A stretch of 19,865 nucleotides of DNA from the NCBI GenBank assembly GCA_002753725.1, contig PEAL01000065.1, forward strand, positions 1 to 19,865. The letters are read 5' to 3'. The notes under the pieces are model-generated. The model searched no databases. It saw only the letters and a program-made list of their open reading frames with translations, and was not told the DNA's origin. Below, one piece after another: positions 1,627-19,716 of this stretch. Every line of letters starts with the position of its first letter. The first letter of the stretch is position 1. Source of the DNA: Deltaproteobacteria bacterium. Its GTDB lineage: Bacteria > Desulfobacterota > Desulfobacteria > Desulfobacterales > Magnetomoraceae. Both the position numbers and the translations under genes were made by a program.

Positions 1627-1793
1627 GTTATTCTCAGGTTCTTTTATCGGATGCCAGAACAAGCAAGAGACCAATAATCGGTGTTAACAAAATGGATCCA
1701 AAAAAATATCCCCAAAAACCAAATTTTCGATTGGCTCCGAAAAGTCCAATGAACAAACAAATCATAAAATAGATTGCATAATGCATATGTGTT

Positions 1794-1814
1794 ATTCCTT
1801 ATTCCTTATTCCTT
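1794..1814. repeat. Three tandem copies of the 7-mer attcctt, overlapping the stop codon of the giant minus-strand gene.
   Basis: Read directly: attccttattccttattcctt. Confidence 0.4.
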
Positions 1815-5100: not shown

Positions 5101-8100
5101 TTTGCCCATACTGTTTGGGATGTGCTGATATTGCCAGCCCGGTCTTTTGACTGAACGTGAAGGAACCATCGGCCATTAATATTCTTTCCTGTAAAACAGG
5201 TCGTGGTATCAAAATCAGTTGAAAATTGTGCCTCGGAATGTTGAGTGAACGAATAACGCGATTTTACGCCGCTATCCTGATCAATTAATTGCCAGGCCCA
5301 TTGTTTGGACTGAACAGGATATGCAACAGAGGATAGCCCTTTTATTACAGGAGGAGTATTATCAAGAATACTTGACACTGTAACGATTTCACTGGTATTC
5401 CCAGCGCGATCCAGTGCCTGAACATGAATAAACCATGTCCCTTCAGCATTAGATAGATGAGCAGAGGTCACATGGGTAAAGGATGTTGTGGGGGATGCAT
5501 CGGCACGTTGATCGATAATATAGCGATGCAATACGTCTGGATCATTATCCAGGGTTGCCCATGTCCATGATTGATTCCTGACTGGATACAGATTATCTGT
5601 AAGTCCGATAATTTCAGGCGGGGTGTTGTCAATGATTGCAGAAACTGTGATGTGTTCACTAAGATTTCCTGCCTGATCTTTTGCCATAACATGCAAATAC
5701 CAGATGCCATCACCTTCTTCAATCGTGGCCTTGGCTTCTGGTTTGAATTGTCCAGATGGCGGTGCATCTTTATTTTGATCGATAGAAAATTGATAACTGA
5801 CGGTTTCATCCAAAGGTTCAGAATACCATGTCCATTTTTTCTGGTGTTTAGGTATAGAATCGTTTGAAAGCCCTTTAATGATTGGTGCTGTGTTATCCAA
5901 AATGGCTGAAACGCGAATTATTTCACTCAAATTGCCAGCACGGTCTTTTGCTTGAAGAAAAAGATAGCACATCTGATTTTCACCAGAGATTTCAACAGAT
6001 GTTTCATGCGTGTAAGAGCCGAACGGTTGTTTCTCAAGCGTTTTACTGATAGCATACCGATAGTCAAGGTATGGATCAGCATCATGGCCTTTCCATTGCC
6101 ATTTTTTTCTTTGTGTGGGAACGGGGTCATCATCTAACCCACTAATAACCGGGGCTGTGTTGTCCAGCAATTCAGAAACAGTGGCAACATTACTTTCATT
6201 TCCTGCGCGATCAATGGCCTGAACATGCAAATACCATCGGCCATCACCACTGGATATCGATGCCGTGTTCGTATATTGATAATTACCATCAGGTAAGGCG
6301 TTTTCATTTTGGGTGATTAAATACCGGTATACAATTTGGTGATCAGCGTCTTTTGCCTGCCAGTTCCATTTTATTTTTTTTACAGGATGCATTACAGGAG
6401 ATAATCCCGTGACTACCGGCTTTGTTGTATCGATGAGAGCTTTCACTGTAACCACAGAACTTAAATTGCCAGCAGTATCTTGTGCCTGTACATGGAGATA
6501 CCAAAGACCATCCGTTTCATAAATGGGTGTTGAATGAATCGTTGAAAAAATTCCCAATGGTTTGGAATCATAGAATTGATCAATTAAAATTCGAAAGCGA
6601 ACAGTGGGGTCAGCATCTTCTGCATGCCAAGAAAAAGATTTACTTCTTACCGGCGTTACTTCCCTGTCATCAGAAAGCCCCTTAATAACAGGCGGTAATT
6701 GATCCAACAGACAATATACATGATAAACCTTACTGAGATTGCCTGCCCAGTCTTTTGCCTGAACATGAAGATACCACCGCCCATCGACATCTTTAATTGT
6801 TGCGGTAGTTGTTTTTTTAAATTCTGTTTCAATGAGGGACTGTTCTTTCTGGTCAATGGTATACCGAAATGTCGCATTTTCATTTGAATGGGTTTTCCAG
6901 GCCCATATTTTCTGTTTTTTAGGAACGGAATCATTTTCAATACCCACAATTCTGGGAGGCACATTATCCAGAACCACAGAGACCGTGACAACATTGCTGA
7001 GATTTCCGGCGCGATCTGTTGCCTGAACATGGAGATAGCATAAGCCTTCAATATCTTTGGCAATCGCAGAATGTGTTGAATTAAACGGTCCTTCAGGTTT
7101 TGAATCAGGATGATGATCGATCAAATACCTGAAAAGAATAGTGGTATCATCATCCTTTGCTGACCATGTCCATCGTTTAACTGTTGTGGACGTTAATGAA
7201 TCAGACAGGCCGATAATTATTGGCGCTGTGGTATCAAGAATTGTCTGGACAGTGACAGTATTGCTTTCATTGCCTGCTGTATCGCATGCCTGAAGATGTA
7301 GATACCAGATACCATCATCATAATAATTTTTATCCAGTTGAATCATGCGGGTGAATGTATATGCACCTTTTGGATGAGAATCGGCAAACTGATCGACAAG
7401 ATATCGAAACCGAACATTGGGGTCAGCATCGTTTGCTGATAGCATCCATTTTTGTATGGACACTGGCGTAATCGAATGAGCAATATCATTAATGAGTGGT
7501 GGTATGGTGTCAATTGTAATGGATAACAACTCAGAAATACTGATATTTTCATCACTCTGGGTTTGATAATGTGCAGATAATTCATGTGTCCCTTCAGTCA
7601 AATCAATGTTAAACTGAAAAATATCTGCTGTGATGACTGTCGTTGCCCCTGATAAAGCATTTCCATCAACAAGAAGAACCACTGTCTGGTCGATATCTCC
7701 GAATCCTTGAATGTGTAAATTTTTAGATTGGCGGGTGATCCTATCGGTATTGAAAAAACCTGTATCATGTTCAGGTTCCAAGGATAGATTATATGGTTTT
7801 GGGTAGTGTGAATAAATGCCTTCTCCCCAGAAAATGTCAGCATGTTCTGTTTTATTCACCGCATTTTGTTTATTTCGAATATTGGTATACGCAATTGAAA
7901 TGGCATTGGAATCAGCATATTCAGACAAATAAATTTCATAGGGCATTTGTTCATTCCACAACGTTGCATGCGTCATAGTAAGAGAAGAATGATAAGCAAA
8001 AATGGCAGAGGAAACAGGGGCATCATTAACGGGGTGATTTTGGGTTAAAACCGTGCGAAATATATTTATCGTTGATTTTTGGGCGTAAATGGCTATTCCG

Positions 8101-8693
8101 GAAGTGGCTTTATTGTTCATCAATGTGACATTCGATAAGATCATATCTGAACCCTGACAATATATCCCTGCACCTGAACTGTTTGCTGTATTATGGACAA
8201 TGGCTGTTTGAGTGAGAGTCATGTTAGCGTACACGCAATATATACCACCGCCTTGTTCTGCGGTATTTTCTTTGATAATGACATTCACGAATTGAGGTGA
8301 TGCACCTCTGCAATAGACCCCTCCGCCGAGGTAAAAGGATTTTATGTCAGCTTTTCCATTGATGAGCGAAACATTACTGATGTGCGTTTTTTGATCCACA
8401 ATACCACCCAATGATTCATCAAAAAGCAACACACTTGAACGTTGGCAGCCATCAATGATTGTCTTGTTCTTGTCTTCACCAGACAGCTGAATGCCATTGA
8501 CTTTTGGCCATATAATATTTTCACGATAATTCCCATTTTTAATCAAAATGGTATCGTTGGATGTTGCAGAATTCAATGCTTGCTGGATGGTTTTAAAATC
8601 CGCTGGTACATGTAACATACGTGCATATGTGATTGAACATGCAAATAATAAAAAAAGAATACAAAATAAATATGGTTTAATGCTTGTTCTCAT
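1806..8693 (-). CDS. Giant cell-surface protein of about 2295 aa. It has a signal peptide, a right-handed parallel beta-helix domain, about 20 tandem Ig-like (beta-sandwich) repeats and a C-terminal OmpA-like peptidoglycan-binding domain. Adhesin-like.
   Basis: Continuous ORF 1806-8804. The start is assigned to the ATG at 8693, where the N-terminus MRTSIKPYLFCILFLLFACSITYA-RM is a classic Sec signal peptide. The upstream in-frame part overlaps the preceding gene. The C-terminus carries the OmpA/MotB-type motif HTDNSGDEDKNVELSQQRADYIRTYL...GYGETRP...EGKLKNRRAE. The N-terminal region has GGGVYC/GGGIYC/GAGIYC motifs typical of parallel beta-helix (PbH1) repeats. The middle carries about 20 repeats of consensus W.W...D.D....YRY.IDQ....P.G.F....A.I...DG.WYLHVQA.D.AGN.S.V.TVSAILDNTPP.I.GL. 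Confidence 0.85.
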   Translation of the reverse strand: MRTSIKPYLFCILFLLFACSITYARMLHVPADFKTIQQALNSATSNDTILIKNGNYRENIIWPKVNGIQLSGEDKNKTIIDGCQRSSVLLFDESLGGIVDQKTHISNVSLINGKADIKSFYLGGGVYCRGASPQFVNVIIKENTAEQGGGIYCVYANMTLTQTAIVHNTANSSGAGIYCQGSDMILSNVTLMNNKATSGIAIYAQKSTINIFRTVLTQNHPVNDAPVSSAIFAYHSSLTMTHATLWNEQMPYEIYLSEYADSNAISIAYTNIRNKQNAVNKTEHADIFWGEGIYSHYPKPYNLSLEPEHDTGFFNTDRITRQSKNLHIQGFGDIDQTVVLLVDGNALSGATTVITADIFQFNIDLTEGTHELSAHYQTQSDENISISELLSITIDTIPPLINDIAHSITPVSIQKWMLSANDADPNVRFRYLVDQFADSHPKGAYTFTRMIQLDKNYYDDGIWYLHLQACDTAGNESNTVTVQTILDTTAPIIIGLSDSLTSTTVKRWTWSAKDDDTTILFRYLIDHHPDSKPEGPFNSTHSAIAKDIEGLCYLHVQATDRAGNLSNVVTVSVVLDNVPPRIVGIENDSVPKKQKIWAWKTHSNENATFRYTIDQKEQSLIETEFKKTTTATIKDVDGRWYLHVQAKDWAGNLSKVYHVYCLLDQLPPVIKGLSDDREVTPVRSKSFSWHAEDADPTVRFRILIDQFYDSKPLGIFSTIHSTPIYETDGLWYLHVQAQDTAGNLSSVVTVKALIDTTKPVVTGLSPVMHPVKKIKWNWQAKDADHQIVYRYLITQNENALPDGNYQYTNTASISSGDGRWYLHVQAIDRAGNESNVATVSELLDNTAPVISGLDDDPVPTQRKKWQWKGHDADPYLDYRYAISKTLEKQPFGSYTHETSVEISGENQMCYLFLQAKDRAGNLSEIIRVSAILDNTAPIIKGLSNDSIPKHQKKWTWYSEPLDETVSYQFSIDQNKDAPPSGQFKPEAKATIEEGDGIWYLHVMAKDQAGNLSEHITVSAIIDNTPPEIIGLTDNLYPVRNQSWTWATLDNDPDVLHRYIIDQRADASPTTSFTHVTSAHLSNAEGTWFIHVQALDRAGNTSEIVTVSSILDNTPPVIKGLSSVAYPVQSKQWAWQLIDQDSGVKSRYSFTQHSEAQFSTDFDTTTCFTGKNINGRWFLHVQSKDRAGNISTSQTVWANFDTIPPTIEGLSSDINPVSQKKWIWHGKDQDTELMYRYAINPFEQYTPSGPFSDITYAEISNNHGIFYLHVQARDRADNVSNVVTVSARLDTIAPEIVDINVDPIPTQQKKWSWRARDDDPHVMYRYVITQHPEIKPSGTFAYTNTVSFSDGEGVFYLSIQAKDTAGNLSPIKTVSAIIDRTAPSLSGLSDIHQPMKSHTWRWYGKDTDANIYYRYSIDQKQRSQPTGSFNSINQASLSHTEGLWFIHVQARDSANNISDVVTASIVIDTTLPVITGLNNVLIPAQTIHWQWQVEDNDSYTQYRYQVDQLANGIPTTSFTDHHSCELSNGEGTWYLHVQARDRAGNLSDIVTVSAIIDRSSPIITGITDYLTPVQKKVWSWDAANEVSCLYRYTIDQTSDSVPTGEYTNISQATLKQSNGKWYIHIQAKDQAGNISPVTTAVAILDNQSPKIFGLEDDKVPHQQKEWHWNSHDAHTDVRYRYVIDQNFESIPTGLFKNITKARIADKDGTWYLHVQAKDYAGNLSSVKTVSAILDNEPPILIQLASDTTPSTSKQWQWSAKDNDLFIQYRYIIDQNAYTVPKNQFSQITQARLENENGLFYLHVQAQDRAFNISNVLTVHCVLDNKPPVITHLSNDDTPVQSKQWQWRANDDDEQIAYRWLLDQRSDAEPTGSFTHTNETGLSNANGVWYFHIQGKDRAGNVSATKTVYAILDRIPPEIEGLADHLIPQKQIQWSWTARDADSNILYRYHIDQKPETSPSTVFSPVFQAHLSDVNGRWYIHVQAQDRAGNISAVKTVSAIIDNQKPMINGLQDDPVPLQRKTWSWNATDMDQQVTFRWVINSSEISVPSGPFKDHHTAEISEGDGKRYIHVQATDRAGNISEVYTVSALLDNTPPVFDTMINDIIPQKIKQWTWHAKDNDPIIHYRYVIDQKPTSIPSGDFQSITQTTLSQKDGRWFIHLQARDRAGNVTPVQSAFAQLTTSDTSLHYDLNVHFYASAIKPISHARINALGKLLNQYPDVYATIEAHTDNSGDEDKNVELSQQRADYIRTYLIKTFNISSQRLTSKGYGETRPITENVTPEGKLKNRRAEAIIFYKE
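2190..7505 (-). repeat. Tandem array of about 20 diverged ~265-bp repeats, each encoding an ~88-aa Ig-like domain with a YLHVQA.D.AGN.S motif.
   Basis: The motif WYLHVQA[KRQT]D[RQT]AGN[LI]S recurs about every 88 residues in the translation. The DNA shows recurring blocks such as ccattgccattgtttgga and cctgaacatg(a/t)a(g/a)ataccat at the same period. Confidence 0.8.
7604..8612 (-). other. Right-handed parallel beta-helix (pectate-lyase-fold, PbH1-repeat) domain in the N-terminal part of the giant protein.
   Basis: Consecutive short repeats with hydrophobic/Gly ladders: GGGVYCRGASPQFVNVII, GGGIYCVYANMTLTQTAIVHN, GAGIYCQGSDMILSNVTLMNN, SGIAIYAQKSTINIFRTVLTQN. Confidence 0.6.
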
Positions 8694-8704
8694 GTTCTGT
8701 CCAT

Positions 8705-10858
8705 TTAATTGACGACAATCGAATAAAAATAATAAAAATAACCTGCTATCATAAAAAGAGATAAAAAAAGTCCTGTACATTTTACTCTTGGTATTGCCTG
8801 ACAAAAGCCTTTTCGATTCAAGCCGGCAATAATAAGTGTCAACACAAATGAAAGGCCTGTCATAAGGTAAAGAAGAATAAACCAGTGATCAAATGGGATA
8901 AGATAATCAACAGATATTTCAGACAGGAAGTAATATAAGAACGATACCACTCCCAGGCATGACAGATGGGCAAACATCGCAATCAGTGTATGGGAAGGAA
9001 TGATGAATAAAAGGCAGGATAAAAGACCCATAATAATGCATCCAGGAACAAAACATCGCAACCACTGATGAAAAGAATCTCGATGAATAAGGATTTGAAT
9101 TCTATAATCCGGGTTATGTTCTTGATTAAATTGCGAATAATCAACCTTAGGTTGCGTTGTCATGCCATAAGCATAGCAGCGATTCAGTTTCCAGTTGGAA
9201 AGGTTAAATCGATCATTGTCATTGAGACTGATTTCTTTGTTAATATATCTCATTTCATTACTTTTTAATGTATTATGATAAAAATGAATACCTAACTTTT
9301 GTTTATCAAAAGGGTATGTATGGTACAAAAAATTTATCTTAAAGGATCCCTTAATGCTGTATTTTTTATACAAGACACCATCAAGGGTTCCACTTTCAAC
9401 AGGATCGTCTAAAACAACAGGTGTTGTTGCATTTAAAAAGCAAATATCTGCGGGGTCGATTACCGGGGTGTCATACAAGAATGTCAGAAAAAAATGAGCC
9501 GTAAAGAACGATTCTTTTATATCCAGTTCAACGATTTCAGTTTTTACCTGAACAATCGATACGTGTTGAATATCTGATTCATAAGGATTTGTATGGTTTA
9601 ATTTAGATTTCATGTCCATCAGAAACTGTTGGTGAAAAGGAACAAGTACCCCTTTTTGATAGTGACCCAGACCTGTATTTTTTATTGCATTTCCATTATC
9701 ATCAAAAAAGATATCACCGCAGATTCCTTTAAAAGCATAATCAGGTTTCTTTATATCGGTAAGAAAATTTTTTATTTGACGTCTGTACTGGTAAGATCGT
9801 GCAGTGGGGTCAATTTCCATTTTTCTAAGAATATCTGCCATCAGAAGTGTGGCATCATAATAATTTGTTGCAATAGACGATGGAACGTTACGATATTTTT
9901 CATAATAGGCCTTAAAAAAGTCTACAGATTGAGAATTAAACAAATAATTCGCAAAGATATCATTTGCAGTTGTGAAAACACCATCTGAATAATAACCAGG
10001 AATTGATTTTTCCAGGGCAATTGTTCGTAATTCGTTTTGAAACGATTCATATGAAAATACATGACCATTGGTTATAAAAAAGTGAGGATCAAAAGCGTTT
10101 AATTTTTCAATAATCTGAACAGCCAGGCGATCAGATGTTGCAATAAAAACAGAGCTTTTTGCTTTAGATGTTTTAAACATTCTAACGATGGTTTGCAGTT
10201 GTGGATAAATATTTTTTTCTTCATCAATATCAATTGTATTTTCAATTTTAATGCCGTTATTTTTGAAAAAATTCATATATGTATTTTTGATATCACGACT
10301 ATAAATATCTTTAGATGCAATAATGGTTACAGGTGACCATTTACAATACTGCTTTGAAAACATAGCCAGAAATGTTGCCTGATGGAGAGAGGATGGTATG
10401 GATCGAAAATACCATTCATTGTTTAATGTAACATTCGTTGCTGGTGCTGAGGCGGTAATCGCGGGGATACCTTCTTTTAAATAAACCTGCCCGGCAGAAA
10501 AACTGGCAGCGCTGCTATAATGCCCAATAACAAAAAGCAGATGGTCATTTCTTGAGAATGAATTGGCAACTTTCATGGCAAGATTGGTTTTATTCATGTC
10601 ATCTTTATAGATATATTTCAATTTTTTACCATCAATACCGCCATTTGCATTGATTTTTTCTATACATAAATCAATACCCCGAAGCATTTCTTTGCCATAT
10701 TCTTCATCCGCCCCACTGAATGGGCCTGCAACACCAAACAGGCACACATCTTGATCACTGTGATAGATATCAAATACACTCAATAGTAGTAGTATACCGA
10801 TAAACAGTATCACAATTAAAATAATCAATAGGCCTTTATTTAAAATGAATTGTTTCAT
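8705..10858 (-). CDS. Fusion protein of 717 aa. An N-terminal type I periplasmic binding domain (Leu/Ile/Val-binding, LIVBP/ANF-receptor-like) is joined to a pentameric ligand-gated ion channel core (extracellular beta-sandwich plus 4-TM pore domain).
   Basis: N-terminal TM/signal segment, then the LIVBP-like signature GPFSGADEEYGKEMLRGIDLCIEKINANGGIDGKKLKYIYKDD...LLFVIGHYSSAAS...AITASA. Residues about 432-595 match the pLGIC extracellular-domain pattern: beta1 VSIVQVKTEIVELDIKESFFTAHFFLTFLYDTP, then the Pro-loop hallmark YPFDKQKL (codons 9316-9305), then a pre-M1 Arg in IQILIHRDS. M1 with its conserved Pro follows (WLRCFVPGCIIMGLLSCLLFIIP), then three more TM helices with a short M3-M4 loop, as in prokaryotic GLIC/ELIC-type channels. 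Confidence 0.8.
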   Translation of the reverse strand: MKQFILNKGLLIILIVILFIGILLLLSVFDIYHSDQDVCLFGVAGPFSGADEEYGKEMLRGIDLCIEKINANGGIDGKKLKYIYKDDMNKTNLAMKVANSFSRNDHLLFVIGHYSSAASFSAGQVYLKEGIPAITASAPATNVTLNNEWYFRSIPSSLHQATFLAMFSKQYCKWSPVTIIASKDIYSRDIKNTYMNFFKNNGIKIENTIDIDEEKNIYPQLQTIVRMFKTSKAKSSVFIATSDRLAVQIIEKLNAFDPHFFITNGHVFSYESFQNELRTIALEKSIPGYYSDGVFTTANDIFANYLFNSQSVDFFKAYYEKYRNVPSSIATNYYDATLLMADILRKMEIDPTARSYQYRRQIKNFLTDIKKPDYAFKGICGDIFFDDNGNAIKNTGLGHYQKGVLVPFHQQFLMDMKSKLNHTNPYESDIQHVSIVQVKTEIVELDIKESFFTAHFFLTFLYDTPVIDPADICFLNATTPVVLDDPVESGTLDGVLYKKYSIKGSFKINFLYHTYPFDKQKLGIHFYHNTLKSNEMRYINKEISLNDNDRFNLSNWKLNRCYAYGMTTQPKVDYSQFNQEHNPDYRIQILIHRDSFHQWLRCFVPGCIIMGLLSCLLFIIPSHTLIAMFAHLSCLGVVSFLYYFLSEISVDYLIPFDHWFILLYLMTGLSFVLTLIIAGLNRKGFCQAIPRVKCTGLFLSLFMIAGYFYYFYSIVVN

Positions 10859-10889
10859 AAGTTGCTATAAATTATATAAATTATTATTC

Positions 10890-13037
10890 TTAAAGCGGAA
10901 AACAACAGTTGACCACATAAAAAGATATCATCATTATCGTAATCAAACATGCTGCCTTTCCCAAAAATTGAACGAACGCCATTGATTGCTTATAATGATG
11001 GATCGATAAGCCTATCAGTCCCATTTGAAACATGATTGTCAACCCAATAAAACCATACAAACACATAAACAGCATTTCAGAGAATGTCAGAAATGGTATG
11101 TGTAATTTGAAATATAAATGGCATACAGTAGTGATCATCAGGAATATGATATTGATCACCAATGAAATTTTTATTCGATGCACAGGACAAAAATAACTGA
11201 TCGATGTCAGTAGAAAAAGAATAAGACAGGCAATAAAAATAAGCTTTTCCTGCTGATTCAGGCGCCTTTGAATATGAATATCAACAGCGAATTCAGATGC
11301 GTTATTCTTAATATCTCCTGACAATGGGCTTTTTATTAAATAAGGCATCGCGTCCACAGATAGCCATGTTTCAGAATTCAATTTAAAACTTATTTTATTT
11401 AGCTGATCAATAGCAAATATAAACGTGTTTGTGTTTACGCTTGTATCCCGAAAACTTATGGTCAGTTTTTGGCTGTCTATGGGATATCGTTTAAGGTCAA
11501 AGTGATGATAAAATACACTATCCACGGTGTATAACAGATGTGTGGTACCTTGTTTATTCATAGTTTTTTTAGGATTTTTCAATACAAGCGGAGAAACAGC
11601 GTTGGTAAATTGAATCCATTCAGGTTGAAAATGCTTTTGAAAACTAAACCAGAGATTAAACCGGGCATGAAATGTACCATCTATCGTATTGATTTGATTT
11701 AATTGAATATCATCTATCCTTACATACACTAATTGTTTTTTGATAAAATAATCATCATTGTTTGCCATAACGTCATTATCTAATGCTTTTTGAATCAAAT
11801 CATTGGAAATATCATTGAGTGAAACAGCGATGTATTGATGAAAGGCGGGAATATAATGGCCCTTGTATAATTGAGTGACAATCATTGACTTTTTCGTTTC
11901 GCCAACACCATTAAAAAATATTTTTCCGGTTAAGCCCTCCACACAGTGATTCCTATCATAGAATGTTTCAAGTGCATTTTTGAATTTTTTTCTGATGTCC
12001 CGGATAGCCCCCTGTATCTCAATTTTTCTTAATGCTTCAATGCTAACATGTGCCAGATCATAAGATGTCGTACTGATTAATGAAGGCGGTACTCCATAAA
12101 AGGTATAATAATTCTTTTCAAAAATTCTATTGATTTGTTTTGAAAAATACTGAGAAAACAACGATACAGAGTAGATACCATTTGAATAAAAACCGGGTGA
12201 GGATTGTTCTTTGGGATACGCTTTGAATCCATCGATAAAAATTTGAGATGCCAAGGAATCTGCGCCCATAATGATTTGATTCAGTTGCTTCTTTTTCAAA
12301 CCAACCACCAATTTTACAGACGTATCAGCGTGGGTTGCCAAAAAAAACATATCAGGTTTTAACGCATGCGTATCAATGGCCTGTACAATAGTATCAACCT
12401 GATCATCCATACTCGTTGAACTCGAATCCAATGGATATTGTTCAACAATCTCAATTCCTTTTTCCAGTGCTTGTTCTGTAAATACTGCTGCTAAATTTTT
12501 ACCATATGCCCCTGTATCATAAACAATCGTTGCGGTTTTAAGATTCAATGCTGATTGTGCGTAAGCAGCAAGAAAATCACTTTGACAGGAATTTGGTGGG
12601 ACAATTCTGAACAACCATTCATTCATAATCGGCAAGTCATCAGATGTTGCTGAACCGGTTATTGATGGAATCATGTTGTTTTCATAAATAGAGGCAGCCG
12701 CAGTGCAGCAGGAACTGAAATAATGTCCCAGAACAAAAAGAATGTCCTTGTTTCGAACAATTTGTTTTGCTGCACCGACAGCGCCTTCTTCGGTGCCTTT
12801 ATCGTCAAAAACAAGCAGCTTGATCTGGCTGCCATGAAGTCCTCCTGAGGCGTTTATTTGATCAATATAGAATTGTACCCCTTTAACCATTTCATTTCCA
12901 TAAAAAGACTGGGAACCACTGAATGTACTCGCAACCGCAATATAAAGCGTTTTCTTGCCATAATACAAATGAATCGTATAAAATATGGAAATCAACATGC
13001 TTATCAGTAAAATTATAATAATATATTTTTTCATCAT
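10890..13037 (-). CDS. Paralogous LIVBP-like periplasmic binding domain / pentameric ligand-gated ion channel fusion, 716 aa.
   Basis: Start assigned to the ATG at 13037 (MMKKYIIIILLISMLISIFY...), 2 nt after the upstream stop. The longer ORF to 13094 would overlap the upstream gene. LIVBP signature TFSGSQSFYGNEMVKGVQFYIDQINASGGLHGSQIKLLVFDD...ILFVLGHYFSS...SITGSA. pLGIC hallmarks: VYVRIDDIQLNQINTIDGTFHARFNLWFSF, Pro-loop YPIDSQKL (11486-11475), pre-M1 IHIQRR, M1 LIFIACLILFLLTSISYFCP, and three more TM helices at the C-terminus. Confidence 0.75.
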   Translation of the reverse strand: MMKKYIIIILLISMLISIFYTIHLYYGKKTLYIAVASTFSGSQSFYGNEMVKGVQFYIDQINASGGLHGSQIKLLVFDDKGTEEGAVGAAKQIVRNKDILFVLGHYFSSCCTAAASIYENNMIPSITGSATSDDLPIMNEWLFRIVPPNSCQSDFLAAYAQSALNLKTATIVYDTGAYGKNLAAVFTEQALEKGIEIVEQYPLDSSSTSMDDQVDTIVQAIDTHALKPDMFFLATHADTSVKLVVGLKKKQLNQIIMGADSLASQIFIDGFKAYPKEQSSPGFYSNGIYSVSLFSQYFSKQINRIFEKNYYTFYGVPPSLISTTSYDLAHVSIEALRKIEIQGAIRDIRKKFKNALETFYDRNHCVEGLTGKIFFNGVGETKKSMIVTQLYKGHYIPAFHQYIAVSLNDISNDLIQKALDNDVMANNDDYFIKKQLVYVRIDDIQLNQINTIDGTFHARFNLWFSFQKHFQPEWIQFTNAVSPLVLKNPKKTMNKQGTTHLLYTVDSVFYHHFDLKRYPIDSQKLTISFRDTSVNTNTFIFAIDQLNKISFKLNSETWLSVDAMPYLIKSPLSGDIKNNASEFAVDIHIQRRLNQQEKLIFIACLILFLLTSISYFCPVHRIKISLVINIIFLMITTVCHLYFKLHIPFLTFSEMLFMCLYGFIGLTIMFQMGLIGLSIHHYKQSMAFVQFLGKAACLITIMMISFYVVNCCFPL

Positions 13038-13039
13038 AT

Positions 13040-15721
13040 TTAATTCAGTTGCCAATCTTTGATATTCTGTCCACCAAGAGCCATATGAGACCAATTTTTA
13101 ATGCGTGGTTTTATAAGGTAATGGTCGGTTTCATAGAAAATGGGGATTACAAGCGTCTCTCTTTGGGTCAGAATCTCATCGATCATTAAATAATAGTCTT
13201 TTCTTAAATGTAAATTTTTTTCTTTTATGGCTTTATTCAACACATCAGATAATTCTGTATTGATATAACTGTTCTGGCGGCTAAGCTTGTTATATGAATC
13301 AAACAAAAAACTATTGGCATCAGGAAAAGTCGCATACCAGTCAGAAATGAAAATATGAGCCTGTCTGGGATTGTATGAACCAGGTTCTGTAAGACCGATG
13401 ACAGTGGATTGAAGATTCAATCTTTTTTTAAGTAGTAATGAAATCGCTTTGGCAATTTGTTTATGGGAATCATGGATTCCTGAATCAATTAGAATTGCAG
13501 GGCATCCTTTTCCGCCAGGATAGCCCGCTTCGGCTAACATTTTCATGGCATGAGTGGGATGGTAAACAGGCCGTTTCTCCTGACTTGACAGCAATAATAA
13601 ATCAGGGGGTATAAACATTTTCATTGCCTTTTGTTGCCCATGAATGACGAACCTGGTAATAAATGAGCGATCAATAACAGACGCAATGGCTTTTCGTAAC
13701 AAAACATTATCCACAGGGGATTGATTCACATTGAAAAAAAGGCCGGTTGTAGAAAAATTGGTACGTTCTTGATAGTCATGTCGGGTTTCAGGTTGCTTTT
13801 TGACCGAATCAAGAAAACGCGATGGGATGTTTATAAAAGCCCCCCCAAGAATATCCAGTTGATTGTTTTGATACATATGCAAAGCAAGCAGGCTGTTCAT
13901 GATAACGTTATAACGCACTTCCTGAATGGCAACAGTTGAAGCATCATAATAGCGGTCATTTTTTCGTAAAATAATCAAAGAGCCTTTTTCATGACAAGCC
14001 AGTTGAAAGGGACCATTACTGACAATATGTTCAGGGGCTGTCCATTCAGCAGCCCATTTTTGAATCGTTGCCGAAGGCAGAGGGCTGAAAACAGGCAGTC
14101 CGGTGATTGAAGGAAAAAATGCAGCAGGATAGGACAGGATAAAATCAATGGTATAATCATCAATAACGTTGACCCCCAGTTTTGATGCATCTTTGATGAA
14201 TCCTAGATGAATGTCCTGGGCATTTTTGAGTATGAATAAGTGTTTTACATCCGGGCATTGGGTTTCAGGGGTCAAATTTCTAACTATTGCAAATCTCAGA
14301 TCGTGAGCTGTCACCGGCTGTCCGTTTGTCCAGAACACATTTTTTCGCAATTTAAACCGGTAACGATCTAAGGTTTCATTCGGTTCCCAACTCGTGGCAA
14401 AGTCCGGGGAAGACTGATAGGTGTCAGGATGGTATTGAGTCAGGCGTATAAACAATTGCTTTGATAATTCAGTTGTTATTTTATCATGGGCAAGCCCCGG
14501 GTCTAATCGTGAAACATCATTGTTACAAAACCTGTTTATATTGAAAGAATCGACCAGGTCAAAAAAATCATCCTGCTTTTTTTCTTTTCGATTAATAATG
14601 ACAAATTTTCCATCTTCATATTTTTTAAAAAATAAAGCGGATGGCCCGATATTTCCTTGTCGTGTCAGATGATATTGACTTAAAACACCATCCCAATGTT
14701 CCATGAATCTAAGAGTTGTATTTAAAACCATTGGTAAACATGAATTACTTTTTTCCATTGACGTTTTAAGCAAATGAATCAGATCATAACCCCGGGCAGC
14801 AAATGTTTCAGGCTCAACGCCAAAGGCTTGCGTAAAACTGGAAACAAAATCTTGTGTTAATTTTCTGGGAAGTGTGTTGTCAAAGTTGCTTGGGATGATG
14901 GTTCCTTCAGCTTTTTTTCCAGTATTACTCCAAAAATAGCGTGTGTCAATTTCATCGGTGGCCATAATTGGGGTATTGATATTCAACTCTCTCATCTGAT
15001 TTACCACCAATGCTGCGATGTTATCTCTGCATAATAATAAAACAATGTCAAAGGATTCATTTTTTAAATCACTTAAGATATCTCTGAAATTTGTTTCAGA
15101 TCGAGAAAAGGATTGTTGAGATACAATCGCAAGGCCTTTTTGTGTGGCCTCTTCATAAAAAATATCAGCAAGAATCTTACTGGTTTTCTGGCGGTCATTA
15201 AGGATAATAATGCGCTGATAGTGGTTTTGAGAGAAACATTCAGCAATTCTTCTAACATATACTTGATCTGGCATATAATTATTAAAAATATAGGCCCCGC
15301 CATAGCGTAATAAATCCGCCCCTGTAGAAAAAAATAATATGCCAGCTTCTTTGTATACGATTGATGCAGAAATAGCATTTTGAGGACTAAAATGTCCGAT
15401 AACAGCAAAAACATTTTTATTTTTAGCTAATTTTTCTGCAATGCGAATGGATGTTTTTTCATCATCATAATCATAAAACAAAAGCGGTCTGATCCTTTTC
15501 CCCATAACGCCGCCATCGCTGTTTATTTCATCCATAGCCAGTTTAACGCCATGAGCAAACTGTGTGGTAGCAGGGAATGCGTCCACAATTCCAATGAAAA
15601 GATCATCGGTTGATCGGGTCAAATGCTTCATGCGCTCTTCATTGGAAATAACCTTGTTACATGAAAAAAATGTAAGAAGGAGTACAATAAAAGCAAAATG
15701 TAAAACGATGATTGGTTTCAT
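13040..15721 (-). CDS. Predicted lipoprotein of 893 aa made of two complete solute-binding domains. Residues about 38-375 are type I (LIVBP-like). Residues about 395-893 are solute-binding protein family 5 (OppA/DppA/NikA-like peptide or nickel-binding type).
   Basis: Signal peptide with a Cys at residue 21 (LLLTFFSC, a non-canonical lipobox). LIVBP signature IGIVDAFPATTQFAHGVKLAMDEINSDGGVMGKRIRPLLFYDYDD...VFAVIGHFSPQ...FFSTGA. The second half begins LDPGLAHDKITTELSKQLFIRLTQYHPDTYQSSPDFATSWEPNETLDRYRFKLRKNVFWTNGQPVTAHDLRFAI. That matches the conserved N-terminal block of family-5 SBPs (LDPA.A.D..S...L.......G.I.P.LA.SWE.S.DG..Y.F.LRKGV.FHDG.P.TA.DV.FS) and continues to the end of the protein. 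Confidence 0.8.
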   Translation of the reverse strand: MKPIIVLHFAFIVLLLTFFSCNKVISNEERMKHLTRSTDDLFIGIVDAFPATTQFAHGVKLAMDEINSDGGVMGKRIRPLLFYDYDDEKTSIRIAEKLAKNKNVFAVIGHFSPQNAISASIVYKEAGILFFSTGADLLRYGGAYIFNNYMPDQVYVRRIAECFSQNHYQRIIILNDRQKTSKILADIFYEEATQKGLAIVSQQSFSRSETNFRDILSDLKNESFDIVLLLCRDNIAALVVNQMRELNINTPIMATDEIDTRYFWSNTGKKAEGTIIPSNFDNTLPRKLTQDFVSSFTQAFGVEPETFAARGYDLIHLLKTSMEKSNSCLPMVLNTTLRFMEHWDGVLSQYHLTRQGNIGPSALFFKKYEDGKFVIINRKEKKQDDFFDLVDSFNINRFCNNDVSRLDPGLAHDKITTELSKQLFIRLTQYHPDTYQSSPDFATSWEPNETLDRYRFKLRKNVFWTNGQPVTAHDLRFAIVRNLTPETQCPDVKHLFILKNAQDIHLGFIKDASKLGVNVIDDYTIDFILSYPAAFFPSITGLPVFSPLPSATIQKWAAEWTAPEHIVSNGPFQLACHEKGSLIILRKNDRYYDASTVAIQEVRYNVIMNSLLALHMYQNNQLDILGGAFINIPSRFLDSVKKQPETRHDYQERTNFSTTGLFFNVNQSPVDNVLLRKAIASVIDRSFITRFVIHGQQKAMKMFIPPDLLLLSSQEKRPVYHPTHAMKMLAEAGYPGGKGCPAILIDSGIHDSHKQIAKAISLLLKKRLNLQSTVIGLTEPGSYNPRQAHIFISDWYATFPDANSFLFDSYNKLSRQNSYINTELSDVLNKAIKEKNLHLRKDYYLMIDEILTQRETLVIPIFYETDHYLIKPRIKNWSHMALGGQNIKDWQLN

Positions 15722-15746
15722 GAAATAATTCTATTGGCTGTGATGA

Positions 15747-16616
15747 TTAATTTTTATCACCATTTGTTTCTGTATTCAGAATTAAAGGCAATCCATTCTT
15801 GCCACTGCCAATAATAATAATTTTTGAATTTTGTGATTCTGCAAGTTTTTCAGTGGCTTTAATCCCTTGCCAATTGAGATATTGTTCTTTATTGAAAAGG
15901 GATGATGCAATGGTGTTCAAATGATCTCGGATACCTTCTGCTTCAATTCTTTTTCGGGTTGCTTCTTTTTTTTCTCGCTCAATAACATAAGTATGGGCTT
16001 CCGCCAGATGTTTTTGTTTGATTTTATTACGAATGGATTCGGCCACTTCTTCAGGAAGTATGATCCCCCGAACAAGAACATCATCAATATTGATATAGCG
16101 TTGAGCGACCTGTTCTATGGCTTTATTGATAGCCTCCACAATTAATTTTCTTCCCGTGGTGTAAACTTCTTCAGCATTCAATGTACCAATAATTTCACGA
16201 ATAACAGCTTCTATTTCAGGAATAATCACCTTATCCGCATACTCCATTCCCACTTGCTGATGTAATACACCAAGAAGTTTATATTCAGGCGCATAGCGAA
16301 TAGAGAGTTTAATATGAACTTGCAAACCATTTTTAGTGAGGACATCCATTTCCGGTTTAATTTCCTGGATACGAACATTATAGACGTACATTTTATCCCA
16401 GGGAAGAATTAAGTGAAGACCTTCTGAATAAACAGAAAGGATATCTGTTCCACCAAAAAAACGACTCCAAAACACCGCTGCTTCACCTGGATAAATATTG
16501 TATACAATCATATTAAACAGGAAAGCAAAGGTCAATAAAGCAATCAAAATGGTCAGAATGAGAGAAAAGGTATAATTTTTTAATTTGATAAAAAAGTTCT
16601 TGAACCTGTTTTTCAT
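15747..16616 (-). CDS. SPFH/band-7 (stomatin/prohibitin/HflC-like) membrane-scaffold protein, about 290 aa.
   Basis: N-terminal single TM segment (FSLILTILIALLTFAFLF) followed by the SPFH core YPGEAAVFWSRFFGGTDILSVYSEGLHLILPWDKMYVYNVRIQE...DVLTKNGLQVHIKLSIRY and a C-terminal coiled-coil-like KQKHLAEAHTYVIEREKKEATRKRIEAEGIRD. Start taken at the ATG at 16616 (MKNRFKNFF...). The ORF is open up to 16697. Confidence 0.8.
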   Translation of the reverse strand: MKNRFKNFFIKLKNYTFSLILTILIALLTFAFLFNMIVYNIYPGEAAVFWSRFFGGTDILSVYSEGLHLILPWDKMYVYNVRIQEIKPEMDVLTKNGLQVHIKLSIRYAPEYKLLGVLHQQVGMEYADKVIIPEIEAVIREIIGTLNAEEVYTTGRKLIVEAINKAIEQVAQRYINIDDVLVRGIILPEEVAESIRNKIKQKHLAEAHTYVIEREKKEATRKRIEAEGIRDHLNTIASSLFNKEQYLNWQGIKATEKLAESQNSKIIIIGSGKNGLPLILNTETNGDKN

Positions 16617-16818
16617 GATAAATTTCTTTTCATGGATGATAATTAAACAGTAAAATGGGGTGGAAATCAATGATTGTATTGTTATTATGAACAGCAAATG
16701 ATAATAACTAAAAAAAAATGAAATGTCTATGAAAAAAAATGAAAGAAAGGGCAGCCATCACAAAGCATATGGCAACAAATCTATAAATCATTACATAAAT
16801 ATATAAAGATGTAGACCA
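16617..16818. promoter_or_regulatory. Divergent intergenic region, presumably carrying promoters for the minus-strand five-gene cluster and the plus-strand FAD-dehydrogenase gene.
   Basis: AT-rich region of about 200 bp between divergently oriented starts. It contains an 8-bp inverted repeat gttattat...ataataac (16681-16708, 12-bp spacer) and two copies of aaaaaaaatgaaa spaced about 21 bp apart (16712-16745). No -35/-10 pair could be assigned confidently by eye. Confidence 0.3.
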
Positions 16819-18198
16819 ATGAAAAATTCATACGATGTCATTATTGTAGGCGGCGGTCCTGCAGGACTGTTTTCTGCCTGGTATTTTAGTGAATATTCTG
16901 ATTTGCGGGTCTTGTTGATTGAACGTGGAAAAGCACCATTCAAGCGAAAATGTCCGGTGAGTGATAAACATCCCTGTGTTAAATGTAAACCCTGCAATAT
17001 TTTGTGCGGGATCGGTGGCGCCGGGCTGTTTTCAGATGGAAAACTTAATTATATTCATAAACTGGGGAAAACTGACCTGACACAATTTTTACCGGTTCAT
17101 CAGGCAATGGCACTGATCGATGAAACAGAAACCATTTTTAATCGATTTGGTATGGATGGCCCCATTTATCCCACCAATATGGATGAGGCCAAACGCATTC
17201 GAAAAGAGGCCAAAAAAAATGGCATTGATCTTTTGATTATCAAGCAAAAACACCTGGGTAGTGATTTGTTACCGCAATATATTTCAGGTATGGCAGATGC
17301 GGTTCAGGCAAAGGGAGTTCATTTTCATACAGAAGAAGCGGTTGAAGATATTATCGTTGAAAAAAATCATATTCAGGGTGTCGTTACCACCAAAGATACT
17401 TACCATGCACCCAATGTGATTCTTGCTCCTGGGCGTGTGGGTGCGGATTGGGTCACCCGTGTGGCACGAAAACATGGAATTGGACAAACCCATCGAGGTA
17501 TTGAAACCGGCATTCGGGTGGAAGTTCATAACGATATCATGCAGGATTTATGTGATATTATTTATGACCCAACTTTTTTTATTCAAACCCAAAAATATGA
17601 TGATCAAACACGAACCTTCTGTACCAACAAGGGAGGTTTTGTGACGCTTGAAAATTATAAGCATTTTGTATGTGTCAACGGCCATGCGTATCAAAATAAA
17701 AAGTCCAATAACACCAATTTTGCGTTTCTTTCAAAGGTCATTCTTACAGAACCGGTCACAGATAATCAGGCATATGGTGAAGCCATTGGCAATTTGGCCA
17801 CGCTGATTGGCGGAGGAAAACCGATTCTTCAACGGTTTGGCGATCTCAAAAGAGGGCGGCGAAGTACCTGGCAACGCATCAAAAAAGGATATATCGAACC
17901 GACCATGACCAATGTGGTCTGTGGTGATATTGCCATGGCACTTCCAGAACGTATTTTAACCAACCTCATTGAAGGGCTTGATAAATTAAACACGGTTATC
18001 CCCGGTGTTTCCAACGATGAAACCCTTTTGTATGCGCCTGAAATCAAATTTTTTGCCACCCAAATTGAAACCACAAGTCATCTGGAAACAAAAATCAAAG
18101 GCATGTATGTTGCTGGCGATGGTCCCGGTGTTGCAGGAAATATTGTTTCTGCCGCAGCCACAGGGATTATCCCTGCAAAAGCGATTCTTTCAATATAA
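16819..18198 (+). CDS. FAD-dependent dehydrogenase/oxidoreductase, 459 aa, with an N-terminal Rossmann FAD-binding motif and a ferredoxin-like Cys cluster.
   Basis: N-terminal DVIIVGGGPAGL (GxGxxG dinucleotide-binding fold). Cys cluster C-x7-C-x2-C-x2-C-x3-C (KCPVSDKHPCVKCKPCNILCG, nt 16951-17007) followed by GIGGAGLFSDGKL. Second glycine-rich stretch MYVAGDGPGVAGNIVSAAATG near the C-terminus. This architecture resembles the uncharacterised FAD-dependent dehydrogenase family widespread in anaerobes. Confidence 0.8.
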   Translation: MKNSYDVIIVGGGPAGLFSAWYFSEYSDLRVLLIERGKAPFKRKCPVSDKHPCVKCKPCNILCGIGGAGLFSDGKLNYIHKLGKTDLTQFLPVHQAMALIDETETIFNRFGMDGPIYPTNMDEAKRIRKEAKKNGIDLLIIKQKHLGSDLLPQYISGMADAVQAKGVHFHTEEAVEDIIVEKNHIQGVVTTKDTYHAPNVILAPGRVGADWVTRVARKHGIGQTHRGIETGIRVEVHNDIMQDLCDIIYDPTFFIQTQKYDDQTRTFCTNKGGFVTLENYKHFVCVNGHAYQNKKSNNTNFAFLSKVILTEPVTDNQAYGEAIGNLATLIGGGKPILQRFGDLKRGRRSTWQRIKKGYIEPTMTNVVCGDIAMALPERILTNLIEGLDKLNTVIPGVSNDETLLYAPEIKFFATQIETTSHLETKIKGMYVAGDGPGVAGNIVSAAATGIIPAKAILSI

Positions 18199-18213: not shown

Positions 18214-19716
18214 ATGATTCTTCACATCTCAAAAGTATTTATTTTTTTTATTTATTGCATGGTTGGTTACCTACTGTTGATTGTTCCTGGCCTTTGCCAG
18301 GAAGAGCCGGGAGAAACAGCTTTTGATTTGGGGGTGTTTGCTTTTGAAGACAAGGATTTTGATTCCGCCGAAAGACATTTGTTAAAGGCACTGTCCTTAG
18401 CCCCTGATCAGCCCTTTTACTGCCTTTTTCTGGGCAAGGTTTACCTGGCCATCAATCAGCTTGATAAGGCTGAAAAATTTTTGACAAAAGCCTTTCAGCT
18501 AAATCCAATTATGAACGGCCTGAATTATGACCTGGCATACCTGACATTTAAGCAATCACGCTTTAGCGATGCGGCAGATCGTTTTTCAAAAATTGTCGAA
18601 AACGATCCCCTTACCCAAAATGTACTGGCTTGTTACTATGCCGGCATATCATTTTTTGAATGTAATCAATATGAAAAGGCCATTCAATATCTTATGCGTG
18701 CTGCCGAACGTAGCCCCACAATTAAACCCAACAGTATGTTTTACTGTGGTATCTGCTATTATAAACAACATCAAACCCAAAAGGCCGTTCAACATTTTGA
18801 ATATGTGTTGATGCATGCCCCCGCCGATGAATTAAAAGACCATGCAAAAAAATGGCTTATTGCCCTTCGGGCTCAAAAATCTCAGGAACAGCCCTTTGAT
18901 TGTTTAGTCAAACTCTCGGTTCAGGCAGATGATAATGTCATGATCGTTTCCCCTGACTGGATTACCGGAGACGAATCTGATGGTGTTATGCAATTTTATC
19001 TTGCGGGAAAATATTTTTTTACCCCAAAGGATCGCCATCGTTTGGGGGTCGGATTTCGGCATTATCAAACCGTTCATCAGGATCTTTCAGAATTTGACCT
19101 GATGGGAAATATCATTGATATTGCTTATTCATTCCAAATGCCTTTGATTACGCTGGGCCTGAAATACTCACCATCCGCTTACAGGCTCGATGGCAGACAA
19201 TATATAACACGACACCAGTGGAAAGGTCATGTATTGTGGAACGTTTCGGATAACCTGATGAATCGTTTTGCTTATTCCTGTTATATCCAAAATCATGATG
19301 AAAACAGTGAGCGGGATGGGCACACGCATGACATTTCAATGGATATGTATTATAGGCTTAAAAAACATAAAATGAAACTATTGGCAGGTTTTTCAGCAGA
19401 GGAAAACCATCGAAATGAAATGCGATATCAATATGAGGACTTAAAATTCACTCTGGGCCTGACCAAAAAACTTTTGTATACATTGACATTTCATAGTAAG
19501 CTGGGTATTTCTCACAGACGCCACGAGCAATGGGATGAATTGGGCTTTAAGCGAAAGGATAACAAATTTGAGTTTTCATGTACTATTTTAAAGCCGGTCT
19601 GGCAAAAAGGTATGGAAATAGGGTTTGATTACAGTTATACAAAAAATAATTCAATTTTAGACGCATACGATTATCGACGAAATATTTTTGGTATATCGTT
19701 TTTATATCATTATTAA
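18214..19716 (+). CDS. Outer-membrane protein of 500 aa: signal peptide, an N-terminal TPR-repeat domain of about 200 aa, and a C-terminal beta-barrel-like domain of about 280 aa.
   Basis: Hydrophobic N-terminus (IFFIYCMVGYLLLIVPGLC). TPR-like helical repeats (AERHLLKALSLAPDQPFYCLFLGKVYLAINQLDKAEKFLTKAFQLNP..., AIQYLMRAAERSP..., AVQHFEYVLMHAP). The C-terminal half is rich in alternating aromatic/polar strands and ends with the aromatic tail ISFLYHY typical of OM barrels. The start is 15 nt after the FAD-dehydrogenase stop. Confidence 0.7.
   Translation: MILHISKVFIFFIYCMVGYLLLIVPGLCQEEPGETAFDLGVFAFEDKDFDSAERHLLKALSLAPDQPFYCLFLGKVYLAINQLDKAEKFLTKAFQLNPIMNGLNYDLAYLTFKQSRFSDAADRFSKIVENDPLTQNVLACYYAGISFFECNQYEKAIQYLMRAAERSPTIKPNSMFYCGICYYKQHQTQKAVQHFEYVLMHAPADELKDHAKKWLIALRAQKSQEQPFDCLVKLSVQADDNVMIVSPDWITGDESDGVMQFYLAGKYFFTPKDRHRLGVGFRHYQTVHQDLSEFDLMGNIIDIAYSFQMPLITLGLKYSPSAYRLDGRQYITRHQWKGHVLWNVSDNLMNRFAYSCYIQNHDENSERDGHTHDISMDMYYRLKKHKMKLLAGFSAEENHRNEMRYQYEDLKFTLGLTKKLLYTLTFHSKLGISHRRHEQWDELGFKRKDNKFEFSCTILKPVWQKGMEIGFDYSYTKNNSILDAYDYRRNIFGISFLYHY

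Follow-up and report, generated by a model that had tools for sequence, protein, structure and literature searches.

A stretch of 19,865 nucleotides (hereinafter the window; positions 1 to 19,865 of contig PEAL01000065.1, assembly GCA_002753725.1) from a metagenome-assembled genome of Candidatus Magnetomorum, a multicellular magnetotactic prokaryote (MMP; also multicellular magnetotactic bacterium, MMB), carries on its minus strand an operon-like unit that combines a prohibitin-like SPFH protein, a lipoprotein with two substrate-binding protein (SBP) modules, two paralogous pentameric ligand-gated ion channel (pLGIC) subunits fused to type I periplasmic binding protein (PBP-I) domains, a giant OmpA-anchored repeat protein and a miniprotein. 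We posit, with a probability of roughly 55%, that these six genes constitute an operon whose products form a receptor-channel complex of the inner membrane that faces the periplasm. The SPFH gene, the dual-SBP gene, one or two PBP-pLGIC genes and the miniprotein gene make up a cassette that is conserved in several phyla, and as many independent loci show this order of genes, the arrangement is no chance juxtaposition. The envelope signaling module proposed in an earlier reading of the window (hereinafter the original prediction) is real; that it functions as a ligand-gated envelope signaling complex is what we infer from the sequences.

The five large minus-strand open reading frames are all intact and co-oriented, with gaps of 25, 2, 31 and 11 nt in order, and re-reading each junction gave coordinates and gaps in exact agreement with those originally predicted. 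The five-gene extent was right for these genes but too short for the unit, a sixth gene (1786-1634, 50 aa) having been overlooked that starts 19 nt past the stop of the giant gene and so adds a fifth gap to the operon. The claim of a single operon-like unit is borne out both by the tiny gaps here and by the small gaps or 4-nt overlaps in orthologous loci. Likewise, the sole long non-coding stretch upstream of the genes is indeed the divergent intergenic region at 16617-16818 (minus strand), a gene for an FAD protein starting in the opposite direction at 16819. This region likely holds the operon promoter: a consensus scan found a sigma-70-like TAGACA-17-TATTAT at 16729-16701 with a 10/12 consensus match, which is no proof of a promoter. 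The gene junctions are too short for terminators, and the operon shows a hairpin past its last gene. Here, a terminator scan, the sequence and RNA folding delineate a terminator-like region between convergent genes (1587-1626, minus strand), with a 9-bp G+C-rich hairpin (1626-1605) after the miniprotein gene followed by a second hairpin and a U-run; the fold of the 131-nt stretch holding these hairpins has a z of -1.8, which is supportive only. Across positions 1500-17000 of the window terminator-like hairpins number 22, as compared to 9.8 +/- 3.5 in shuffled sequences, most of them being intragenic or antisense. An Rfam scan of the operon and its leader found no RNA element.

Flytrap-fused channel subunits and their partners

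Channel A (10890-13037, minus strand, 715 aa) and channel B (8705-10858, minus strand, 717 aa), which share 26% identity over their full length, are both pLGIC subunits fused to LivJ/Atu2422-type PBP-I flytraps. Each consists of an N-terminal transmembrane (TM) helix or signal anchor, a PBP-I flytrap, a pLGIC β-sandwich with a Pro-loop ('YPID' in channel A and 'YPFD' in channel B) and four TM helices (M1-M4). The pre-M1 arginine is present in channel B as Arg593, and the proline of M1, kept in channel B, is an alanine in channel A. The domain identities of the original prediction agree with our Pfam scan, in which the Peripla_BP_6 domains of the two channels score 131 and 114 bits against a cutoff of 31.7; channel A is further a member of profile A2, which matches ELIC/GLIC, and of the position-1 clade discussed below. 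Sequence similarity of the C-terminal halves to pLGICs becomes evident at the profile level: a profile of 12 such halves from the family matches ELIC, GLIC and GABA-A chimeras in the PDB from the Pro-loop to M4 (E 8e-18 to 1e-14), and 5 of the 12 members reach the Pfam Neur_chan_LBD domain. The single channel sequences show only sub-threshold matches to ELIC in the PDB (E 0.1-0.3), and a search of a word-indexed protein database with just the C-terminal half of channel B was without result.

Structure prediction points in the same direction. The AlphaFold2 (AF2) model of channel B (pLDDT 81.6) comprises a TM helix (residues 2-36), a PBP fold (38-412), a β-sandwich (430-593) and four helices (596-716). 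In Foldseek searches, a model of the C-terminal half (pLDDT 82) aligns with whole subunits of GLIC, ELIC, GluCl and GlyR at E 1e-16 and TM-scores of 0.65-0.76; with the full-length model the best 50 matches are to PBP/flytrap structures only, the pLGIC matches being seen with the C-terminal-half model. Thus, a β-sandwich of ~200 aa followed by M1-M4, the profile-level similarity and the Pro-loop motif identify these proteins as pLGICs, and the family conserves [FY]P[FL]D at the Pro-loop and an invariant pre-M1 arginine (Arg593). The subunit fold, i.e., a β-sandwich with the Pro-loop and M1-M4, is shared with GLIC, ELIC and DeCLIC. Of these, GLIC and ELIC are devoid of an N-terminal domain. DeCLIC resembles the window channels in having a large periplasmic N-terminal domain, which differs in being built of two jelly-roll lobes and not of a Venus flytrap. 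We know of no accessory operon partners or natural context for any of these three channels, and the M2 lining of the window proteins differs from that of all three.

The N-terminal modules show the two-lobe flytrap fold and above-threshold Pfam scores of type I PBPs. The PBP part of the channel B model reaches TM-scores of 0.8-0.89 to the leucine/amino-acid SBPs LivJ, LivK and Atu2422, and matches the flytraps of mGluR and CaSR with a Foldseek probability of 1.0. Its pocket motif GHYSS...PAITASA aligns with GHF77NS...ITPAAT of Atu2422; S116, A133 and T135 are invariant or nearly so in the flytraps, and the acidic residue of the second lobe is seemingly absent in channel B. These three, corresponding to the Ser after GHxx and to Ala and Thr of the ATA strand, are putative contacts to the amino-acid backbone; Atu2422 is a receptor for GABA and small amino acids. 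A LivJ-type flytrap coupled to a membrane signaling body is also seen in iGluRs, mGluRs and the SBP-dependent chemoreceptors; however, the body here is a pentameric pLGIC as opposed to the tetrameric pore of the iGluRs or a 7-TM domain, such that neither the stoichiometry nor the geometry of the flytrap dimer can match. Gating of the channels by the fused binding domain, as named in the original prediction, is putative; the M2 helices of these two paralogs are atypical (see below).

An exhaustive profile search recovered 391 representatives of the PBP-pLGIC family at E <= 1e-30, mostly of 700-800 aa and with the pLGIC portion starting at about residue 430; the database label 'ABC transporter substrate-binding protein' masks these hundreds of representatives. 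In a neighbor-joining tree the channels encoded at the first and second position of the cassettes fall into separate clades, indicating that the paralog pair is old and has been retained, which suggests two distinct channel subunits.

The gene preceding the channels codes for an 893-aa lipoprotein (13040-15721, minus strand), recognized by Pfam and PDB matches and its lipobox, that unites a LivJ-like PBP-I module (residues ~40-380) with an OppA-like SBP5 module (~395-880). Both are present in one protein with clear Pfam scores (Peripla_BP_6, 105 bits, cutoff 31.7; SBP_bac_5, 212 bits, cutoff 32.4). In the PDB, the PBP-I half matches 4mlc at 1.6e-39 and the OppA-like half matches Borrelia OppA3 at 3e-61, along with OppA and MppA of E. 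coli. Almost every ortholog keeps the lipobox cysteine, and the residue after it is often Asp or Glu. The protein thus has the features of an SBP_bac_5/OppA-like cluster C lipoprotein, with every NCBIfam equivalog score lying below its cutoff. Such modules might be taken for accessories to nutrient uptake that feed an amino-acid or peptide ABC importer, given that LivJ and OppA are the closest characterized relatives of the soluble modules and that NCBI names the proteins P0001, P0003 and P0008 'ABC transporter substrate-binding protein'. Yet the PBP-I domains of the channels are joined covalently to a pLGIC body, and the conserved partners are the SPFH protein and the miniprotein rather than transporter subunits, making this role highly improbable. 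An ABC importer as such was rejected, as neither the window nor any cassette contains a permease or ATPase gene (BPD_transp, ABC_tran).

The first gene of the operon encodes a 289-aa SPFH protein (15747-16616, minus strand) with a Band_7 domain (89 bits against a Pfam cutoff of 23.6; E 5e-25), an N-terminal TM helix and a C-terminal coiled coil, as is typical of the SPFH/prohibitin family. Its best PDB matches are prohibitin-1 and -2 (PHB1/PHB2), to which residues 22-261 align at E 1e-16 to 1e-19. Five positive charges precede the single N-terminal TM helix, and by the positive-inside rule this predicts an N-in orientation that places the SPFH and coiled-coil regions on the periplasmic side, the orientation of HflK/C and the prohibitins and not that of the cytoplasmic stomatins. 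The original prediction of a stomatin/prohibitin-family scaffold holds on its prohibitin side; its analogy to the stomatin that regulates animal channels from the cytoplasm is loose, as the protein is prohibitin/HflKC-like with a domain predicted to face the periplasm. With the HflK/HflC-FtsH system and the mitochondrial prohibitins it shares the PHB1/2 match over the TM helix, SPFH domain and coiled coil along with the predicted N-in orientation, but it differs in being the product of a single SPFH gene that has no AAA protease beside it and is partnered by binding proteins and ion channels. It stays below the equivalog level of HflK (38 against 159 bits) and HflC (30 against 134 bits), and Pfam and the locus map reveal one SPFH gene only, with no HflK/HflC-type gene pair and no protease gene in the cassette. 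An NfeD domain, the mark of SPFH-NfeD operons, is absent from the Pfam scans of the window proteins.

The last gene (1634-1786, minus strand), supported by its sequence, translation and homologs and preceded by AAGGA repeats, encodes a 50-aa miniprotein with two TM helices, MHYAIYFMICLFIGLFGANRKFGFWGYFFGSILLTPIIGLLLVLASDKRT. Among 153 fetched loci its homologs (68-94 bits) are confined to 17 loci, all of them with the cassette; the gene follows the giant gene in MMPs and is elsewhere placed after the last channel gene or just before the SPFH gene. The protein belongs to no Pfam or NCBIfam family and has no OB-fold. In two variant loci, L151 of Thiomargarita (9820-12504) and L035 (4705-6969), the miniprotein and SPFH genes form a pair with a stand-alone PBP-I protein of ~420-470 aa, and the L151 cassette is without a pLGIC gene. 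Hence, the miniprotein, the SPFH protein and a PBP-I lipoprotein may be the tightest trio of the system.

A cassette conserved across phyla

The loci were collected with a full-length channel alignment and the pattern G[IV]PA[IV]T[AG]SA[TPS], a scan that samples one subclade of the family. The genome-wide scan comprises 60 loci annotated with a local phmmer map, and the counts below were made on 44 pLGIC loci that are non-redundant and have 3 kb or more of upstream sequence. The original prediction had named a lack of conserved linkage in related genomes as one possible refutation; instead, the linkage of SPFH, dual-SBP and PBP-pLGIC genes proved to be conserved across taxa. An SBP5 gene lies directly upstream in 19 of the 44 loci, being fused to PBP-I in 13 and stand-alone in six. 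SPFH is present in all ten PBP-I+SBP5 fusion loci with enough flank as compared to none of 26 others, and 12 of 14 fusion loci have two pLGIC genes. With the SPFH protein as the starting point, homologs show identities of 50-90%, and all four sampled contexts adjoin a PBP-I gene.

The same five-gene order, with different flanks, occurs on two contigs of Magnetomorum HK-1, in an ENA assembly and in a Logan assembly, with gaps of up to ~20 nt or overlaps, commonly of 4 nt; in the wider set of orthologous cassettes the gaps extend to 48 nt, with overlaps again commonly of 4 nt. Between the window and the HK-1 locus L001 the five large proteins co-diverge, at 78, 55, 46, 44 and 50% identity, the first value being that of the SPFH protein, the best conserved of the set, and the channels evolving fastest. 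Beyond the MMPs, carriers include Desulfonema magnum, several Desulfobacterales, Spirochaetota, KSB3/Moduliflexus and Ca. Desulfarcum. Desulfonema magnum has three pLGIC loci, two of them with SPFH and dual-SBP genes and the third with the channel pair only. A simpler pair of SBP5 and PBP-pLGIC genes is found in Thioploca, Marithrix, Halobeggiatoa and Lentisphaerales. A tblastn search of plasmids yielded only distant PBP-pLGIC-like genes from Azospirillum, which are uninformative for synteny.

MMP genomes carry several diverged copies of the cassette, extended by the giant OmpA-anchored repeat protein; in HK-1 there are at least four (L001, L004, L152 and L153) and five SPFH paralogs. Directly upstream of the SPFH and PBP-pLGIC genes of L153 (1805-8224; JPDT01002329), on the same strand and with short gaps, are genes for a double methyltransferase and a group II pyridoxal phosphate-dependent amino-acid decarboxylase. 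The best PDB match of the latter is 4obu, and its relatives are DABA, aromatic-amino-acid and glutamate decarboxylases. This enzyme might supply an amine ligand locally, L025 presenting a second, weaker case. Within the subclade sampled by the scan, carriers of PBP-pLGICs are often filamentous or multicellular, namely MMPs, Desulfonema, Thioploca, Marithrix, Halobeggiatoa, Trichodesmium, Dapis, Spirulina, Pleurocapsales, Chloroflexi and Moduliflexus/KSB3.

Fusions of PBP-I to pLGICs and conserved neighborhoods of pLGIC and stand-alone SBP genes were previously reported by Tasneem, Iyer, Jakobsson and Aravind (2005; PMC549065), who proposed a role in chemoreception. The ART-LGICs of that study share with the present proteins the order of an N-terminal PBP-I followed by the ligand-binding domain and 4-TM channel of a pLGIC, along with a neighboring gene for a stand-alone SBP. 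However, they are single genes from alpha-proteobacteria whose products are presumed homopentamers with PBP-II partners, whereas here an OppA-like SBP is fused to a second PBP-I, the channels come as two paralogs, SPFH and miniprotein genes strictly co-occur and the MMPs add the giant protein. The statement in the original prediction that no described system with this gene content could be named consequently needs amending: the core of PBP-I-pLGIC and SBP is in the 2005 study, and the SPFH protein, dual SBP, paralog pair, miniprotein and giant protein were not found described. Our literature search retrieved no work on an SPFH-pLGIC link, a characterized PBP-pLGIC, a tethered dual SBP, a conserved paralog pair, the miniprotein or the MMP giant protein, and Jaiteh (2016) treats neither N-terminal domains nor operons.

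A proposed receptor-channel complex and its alternatives

We propose that the two paralogs assemble into pentamers, perhaps containing both subunits, as channels in which closure of the flytrap on a small amino acid or amine would be passed to the β-sandwich domain and open the pore. Docking of an SBP onto a receptor is an established principle, as in MBP-Tar; in a comparable manner, the OppA-like lipoprotein, tethered to the inner membrane and loaded with peptide, might dock onto the channels via its own PBP-I module through PBP-I:PBP-I contacts and thereby provide a peptide input. HflK/C and the prohibitins form rings and cages, and a similar ring or cage of the SPFH protein on the periplasmic face might confine and cluster the channels together with the tethered binding protein, with the miniprotein as a putative auxiliary membrane subunit. 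Opening of the pore would result in a fast ion flux or change in membrane potential, which could be read out, for instance, in motility. In MMPs, the giant peptidoglycan-bound protein might position the complex or couple it mechanically to the wall or to cell contacts.

Several points weigh against this proposal. The pLGIC halves of both channels (the C-terminal ~290 aa) have no single-sequence Pfam match. Their M2 helices are atypical, with Ile at 6' and Met at 9' in channel A and Phe at 2' and Gly at 9' in channel B, and both have lost the 0' Arg and the SDLP motif between M2 and M3; in contrast, M2 of the wider PBP-pLGIC family is canonical (R at 0', S/T at 2' and 6', L at 9'), the alignment behind this comparison being possibly one residue off in the TM regions. 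Given these helices and the missing M1 proline of channel A, ion conduction by the window channels is not assured. According to a 2025 paper, DeCLIC, whose N-terminal domain is not a PBP, is the only pLGIC with such a domain to have been characterized. Heteromeric assembly of A and B is suggested by their conserved paralogy, and the cassettes L150, L152 and L153 have a single channel gene. The topology and putative cage formation of the SPFH protein are argued from charge distribution and homology, the candidate promoter and terminator are consensus matches, and no mapped cassette outside the MMPs has the giant protein.

The altered M2 lining, the loss of the 0' Arg and SDLP motif in both channels, the missing M1 proline of channel A and the fast evolution of the channels within the cassette would also fit a pLGIC scaffold that no longer conducts in these MMP paralogs and serves as a transmembrane conformational sensor or as an assembly platform for binding proteins, with output via the SPFH protein or the miniprotein. 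Nevertheless, the four-helix bundle is intact, the full subunit fold is predicted with good confidence, the M2 of the wider family is canonical and no cytoplasmic output domain is present; we consider this reading very unlikely.

The giant protein (1806-8693, minus strand, 2295 aa) bears on two further alternatives. It comprises a Sec signal peptide, an N-terminal parallel β-helix domain, 20 tandem Ig-like/OmpL47-type repeats of 89 aa and a C-terminal OmpA-like domain, the latter two being recognized by Pfam (Big_13 and OmpA), NCBIfam and repeat periodicity. The repeats match the NCBIfam OmpL47-type domain at 2e-58, with matches to OmpA-family models too; their 89-aa period is visible in the protein only, a search for tandem repeats in the DNA of the gene having found none. 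The OmpA domain (62 bits, Pfam cutoff 27.2) retains both peptidoglycan-binding motifs, LSQQRA (LSxxRA) and NRRAE (NRRxE), as seen in OmpA-like peptidoglycan anchors. OmpL47-type repeats and an OmpA-like peptidoglycan-binding C-terminus are shared with the OmpL47-type surface proteins of Leptospira and with Pal/YiaD, respectively. The giant protein differs from these in its length, its 20 repeats and β-helix N-domain, in that its orthologs are no lipoproteins, and in always residing within the pLGIC operon. A lipoprotein nature of the window protein itself, raised by 'LLFAC' in its signal peptide, was rejected, as the cysteine is absent in three orthologs (L001/L002, L003 and L004). Beyond the Sec signal peptide we found no β-barrel, conserved lipobox or recognized secretion signal in the protein, and with no evident route across the outer membrane the surface adhesin of the original prediction is a putative role.

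A PBP-pLGIC gene lies directly upstream of the giant gene in all nine readable loci with the full architecture, all of MMP type. The coupling of the channels to a giant adhesin in the original prediction holds to this extent, but it is confined to the MMP lineage and not general. As no non-MMP cassette has the protein, the core function does not require it, and it might be a passenger, i.e., an MMP insertion co-transcribed with the SPFH, dual-SBP, PBP-pLGIC and miniprotein genes that acts independently in adhesion to other cells or the matrix. In keeping with this, the miniprotein gene of non-MMP cassettes directly follows the last channel gene or precedes SPFH, and the slot is filled otherwise in other lineages (an MscS-like giant, DUF481 or DUF697). 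Against it, the giant gene is placed between the last channel gene and the conserved miniprotein gene, inside the operon and not at its edge; its copies in the nine MMP-type loci, only 35-71% identical, have kept their place after the channel gene, often with a 4-nt overlap; and the protein co-diverges with the other products of the operon. We regard the passenger status as rather unlikely.

Conversely, the giant protein could be the principal input, a tether that passes envelope strain or cell contact to the channel/SPFH complex, the ligand being modulatory. MEC-2 stomatin, the MEC-4 channel and an extracellular tether offer an analog of this logic, and OmpA-like anchors classically fix ion-conducting complexes to peptidoglycan, as in MotB; the intact binding motifs, the giant MscS-type homologs (1276-1302 aa) in the equivalent slot of Desulfonema magnum and others, and apparent PBP-pLGIC-MscS-cNMP fusion proteins (see below) are consistent with it. 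To our knowledge, however, pLGICs are not mechanosensitive, most taxa carry the cassette without a tether protein, the presence of flytrap and OppA-like modules speaks for chemical inputs, and physical contact between the giant protein and the channel is conjecture. A contact or mechano-chemical sensor is thus unlikely, and we favor the ligand-gated receptor-channel complex.

A more speculative extension of that complex, distinctly unlikely at present, is that the multi-copy MMP cassette is a fast cell-to-cell signaling device and thereby a bacterial analog of the chemical synapse. Amine, amino-acid or peptide signals in the shared periplasm-like or central space of the consortium could gate heteromeric channels, which could be held in prohibitin cages and set at cell contacts by the giant wall-anchored protein. 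The multiple cassettes of HK-1, the decarboxylase-linked cassette, the coordination of MMBs and the multicellular carriers hint at this; the coordinated motility of MMBs on a sub-second scale has been described as implying that the cells communicate by some unknown means. If true, membrane potential, and hence the flagella, would be synchronized across the consortium in fractions of a second.

The cellular role of prokaryotic pLGICs has been an open question since their recognition in 2005, and the cassette provides them with defined partners and a physiological context. It suggests oligopeptides and small amino acids or amines as candidates for the ligands, offers candidate auxiliary subunits, and possibly holds the first bacterial heteromeric pLGIC and the first bacterial partnership of an SPFH protein with an ion channel. 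Desulfonema magnum is a cultivable carrier with a complete genome. In MMPs, the amplified cassette joined to the giant protein is a candidate for the rapid coordination and adhesion of obligately multicellular consortia.

Variant cassettes and neighboring genes

In Desulfonema magnum and other Desulfobacterales, giant MscS-type homologs (~1280-1300 aa) are encoded between or beside the pLGIC genes (L059, 12469-16374; L062, 6174-10001; L032, 12410-16258; L023, 3-3908), in the slot taken by the giant OmpA protein in MMPs. The alignments of two proteins of ~1130-1150 aa, P0012 and P0015, cover 80-88% of channel B, and both proteins have precomputed Pfam MscS and cyclic-nucleotide-binding domains in addition. 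They appear to combine PBP-I, pLGIC, MscS and cyclic-nucleotide-binding (cNMP) domains, and with these two channel types, in one chain; a class of ~1150-1250-aa family members with extra C-terminal sequence may have the same architecture.

Small DUF697 membrane proteins, sometimes accompanied by EcsC, flank most non-MMP cassettes (L011, 5832-6338; L013, L026, L032, L042, L059, L060 and L150) and are absent from those of MMPs. At L035 (1681-4701), the stop-to-stop frame of the pLGIC protein also matches DUF697, and this shared frame suggests a DUF697-pLGIC fusion and hence a functional link. A DUF481 outer-membrane protein is encoded just downstream of the cassette in HK-1 (L001, 19974-20855) and in Desulfonema magnum (L020, 12256-13149). 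In L003, a HepT-like toxin gene (6026-6427, 133 aa) sits between the two channel genes of an otherwise collinear cassette.

In the window itself, the plus-strand gene at 18214-19716 encodes a 500-aa protein with TPR repeats and a SlipAM/Slam-like outer-membrane domain (33 bits, Pfam cutoff 22). Slam proteins export surface lipoproteins; the idea that this one exports the lipoprotein of the operon was dropped, as the gene is not conserved beside other cassettes. On the far side of the operon, converging on its terminator, two adjacent plus-strand genes (191-967 and 973-1566) code for Phe/Ile-rich, very hydrophobic membrane proteins of 258 and 197 aa that belong to no family and show only a sub-threshold match to TrbL. 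Finally, the extreme start of the window (41-85, plus strand) matches the Rfam small RNA (sRNA) family Acido-Lenti-1 at E 5e-6, its 39.7 bits exceeding the gathering score of 37.

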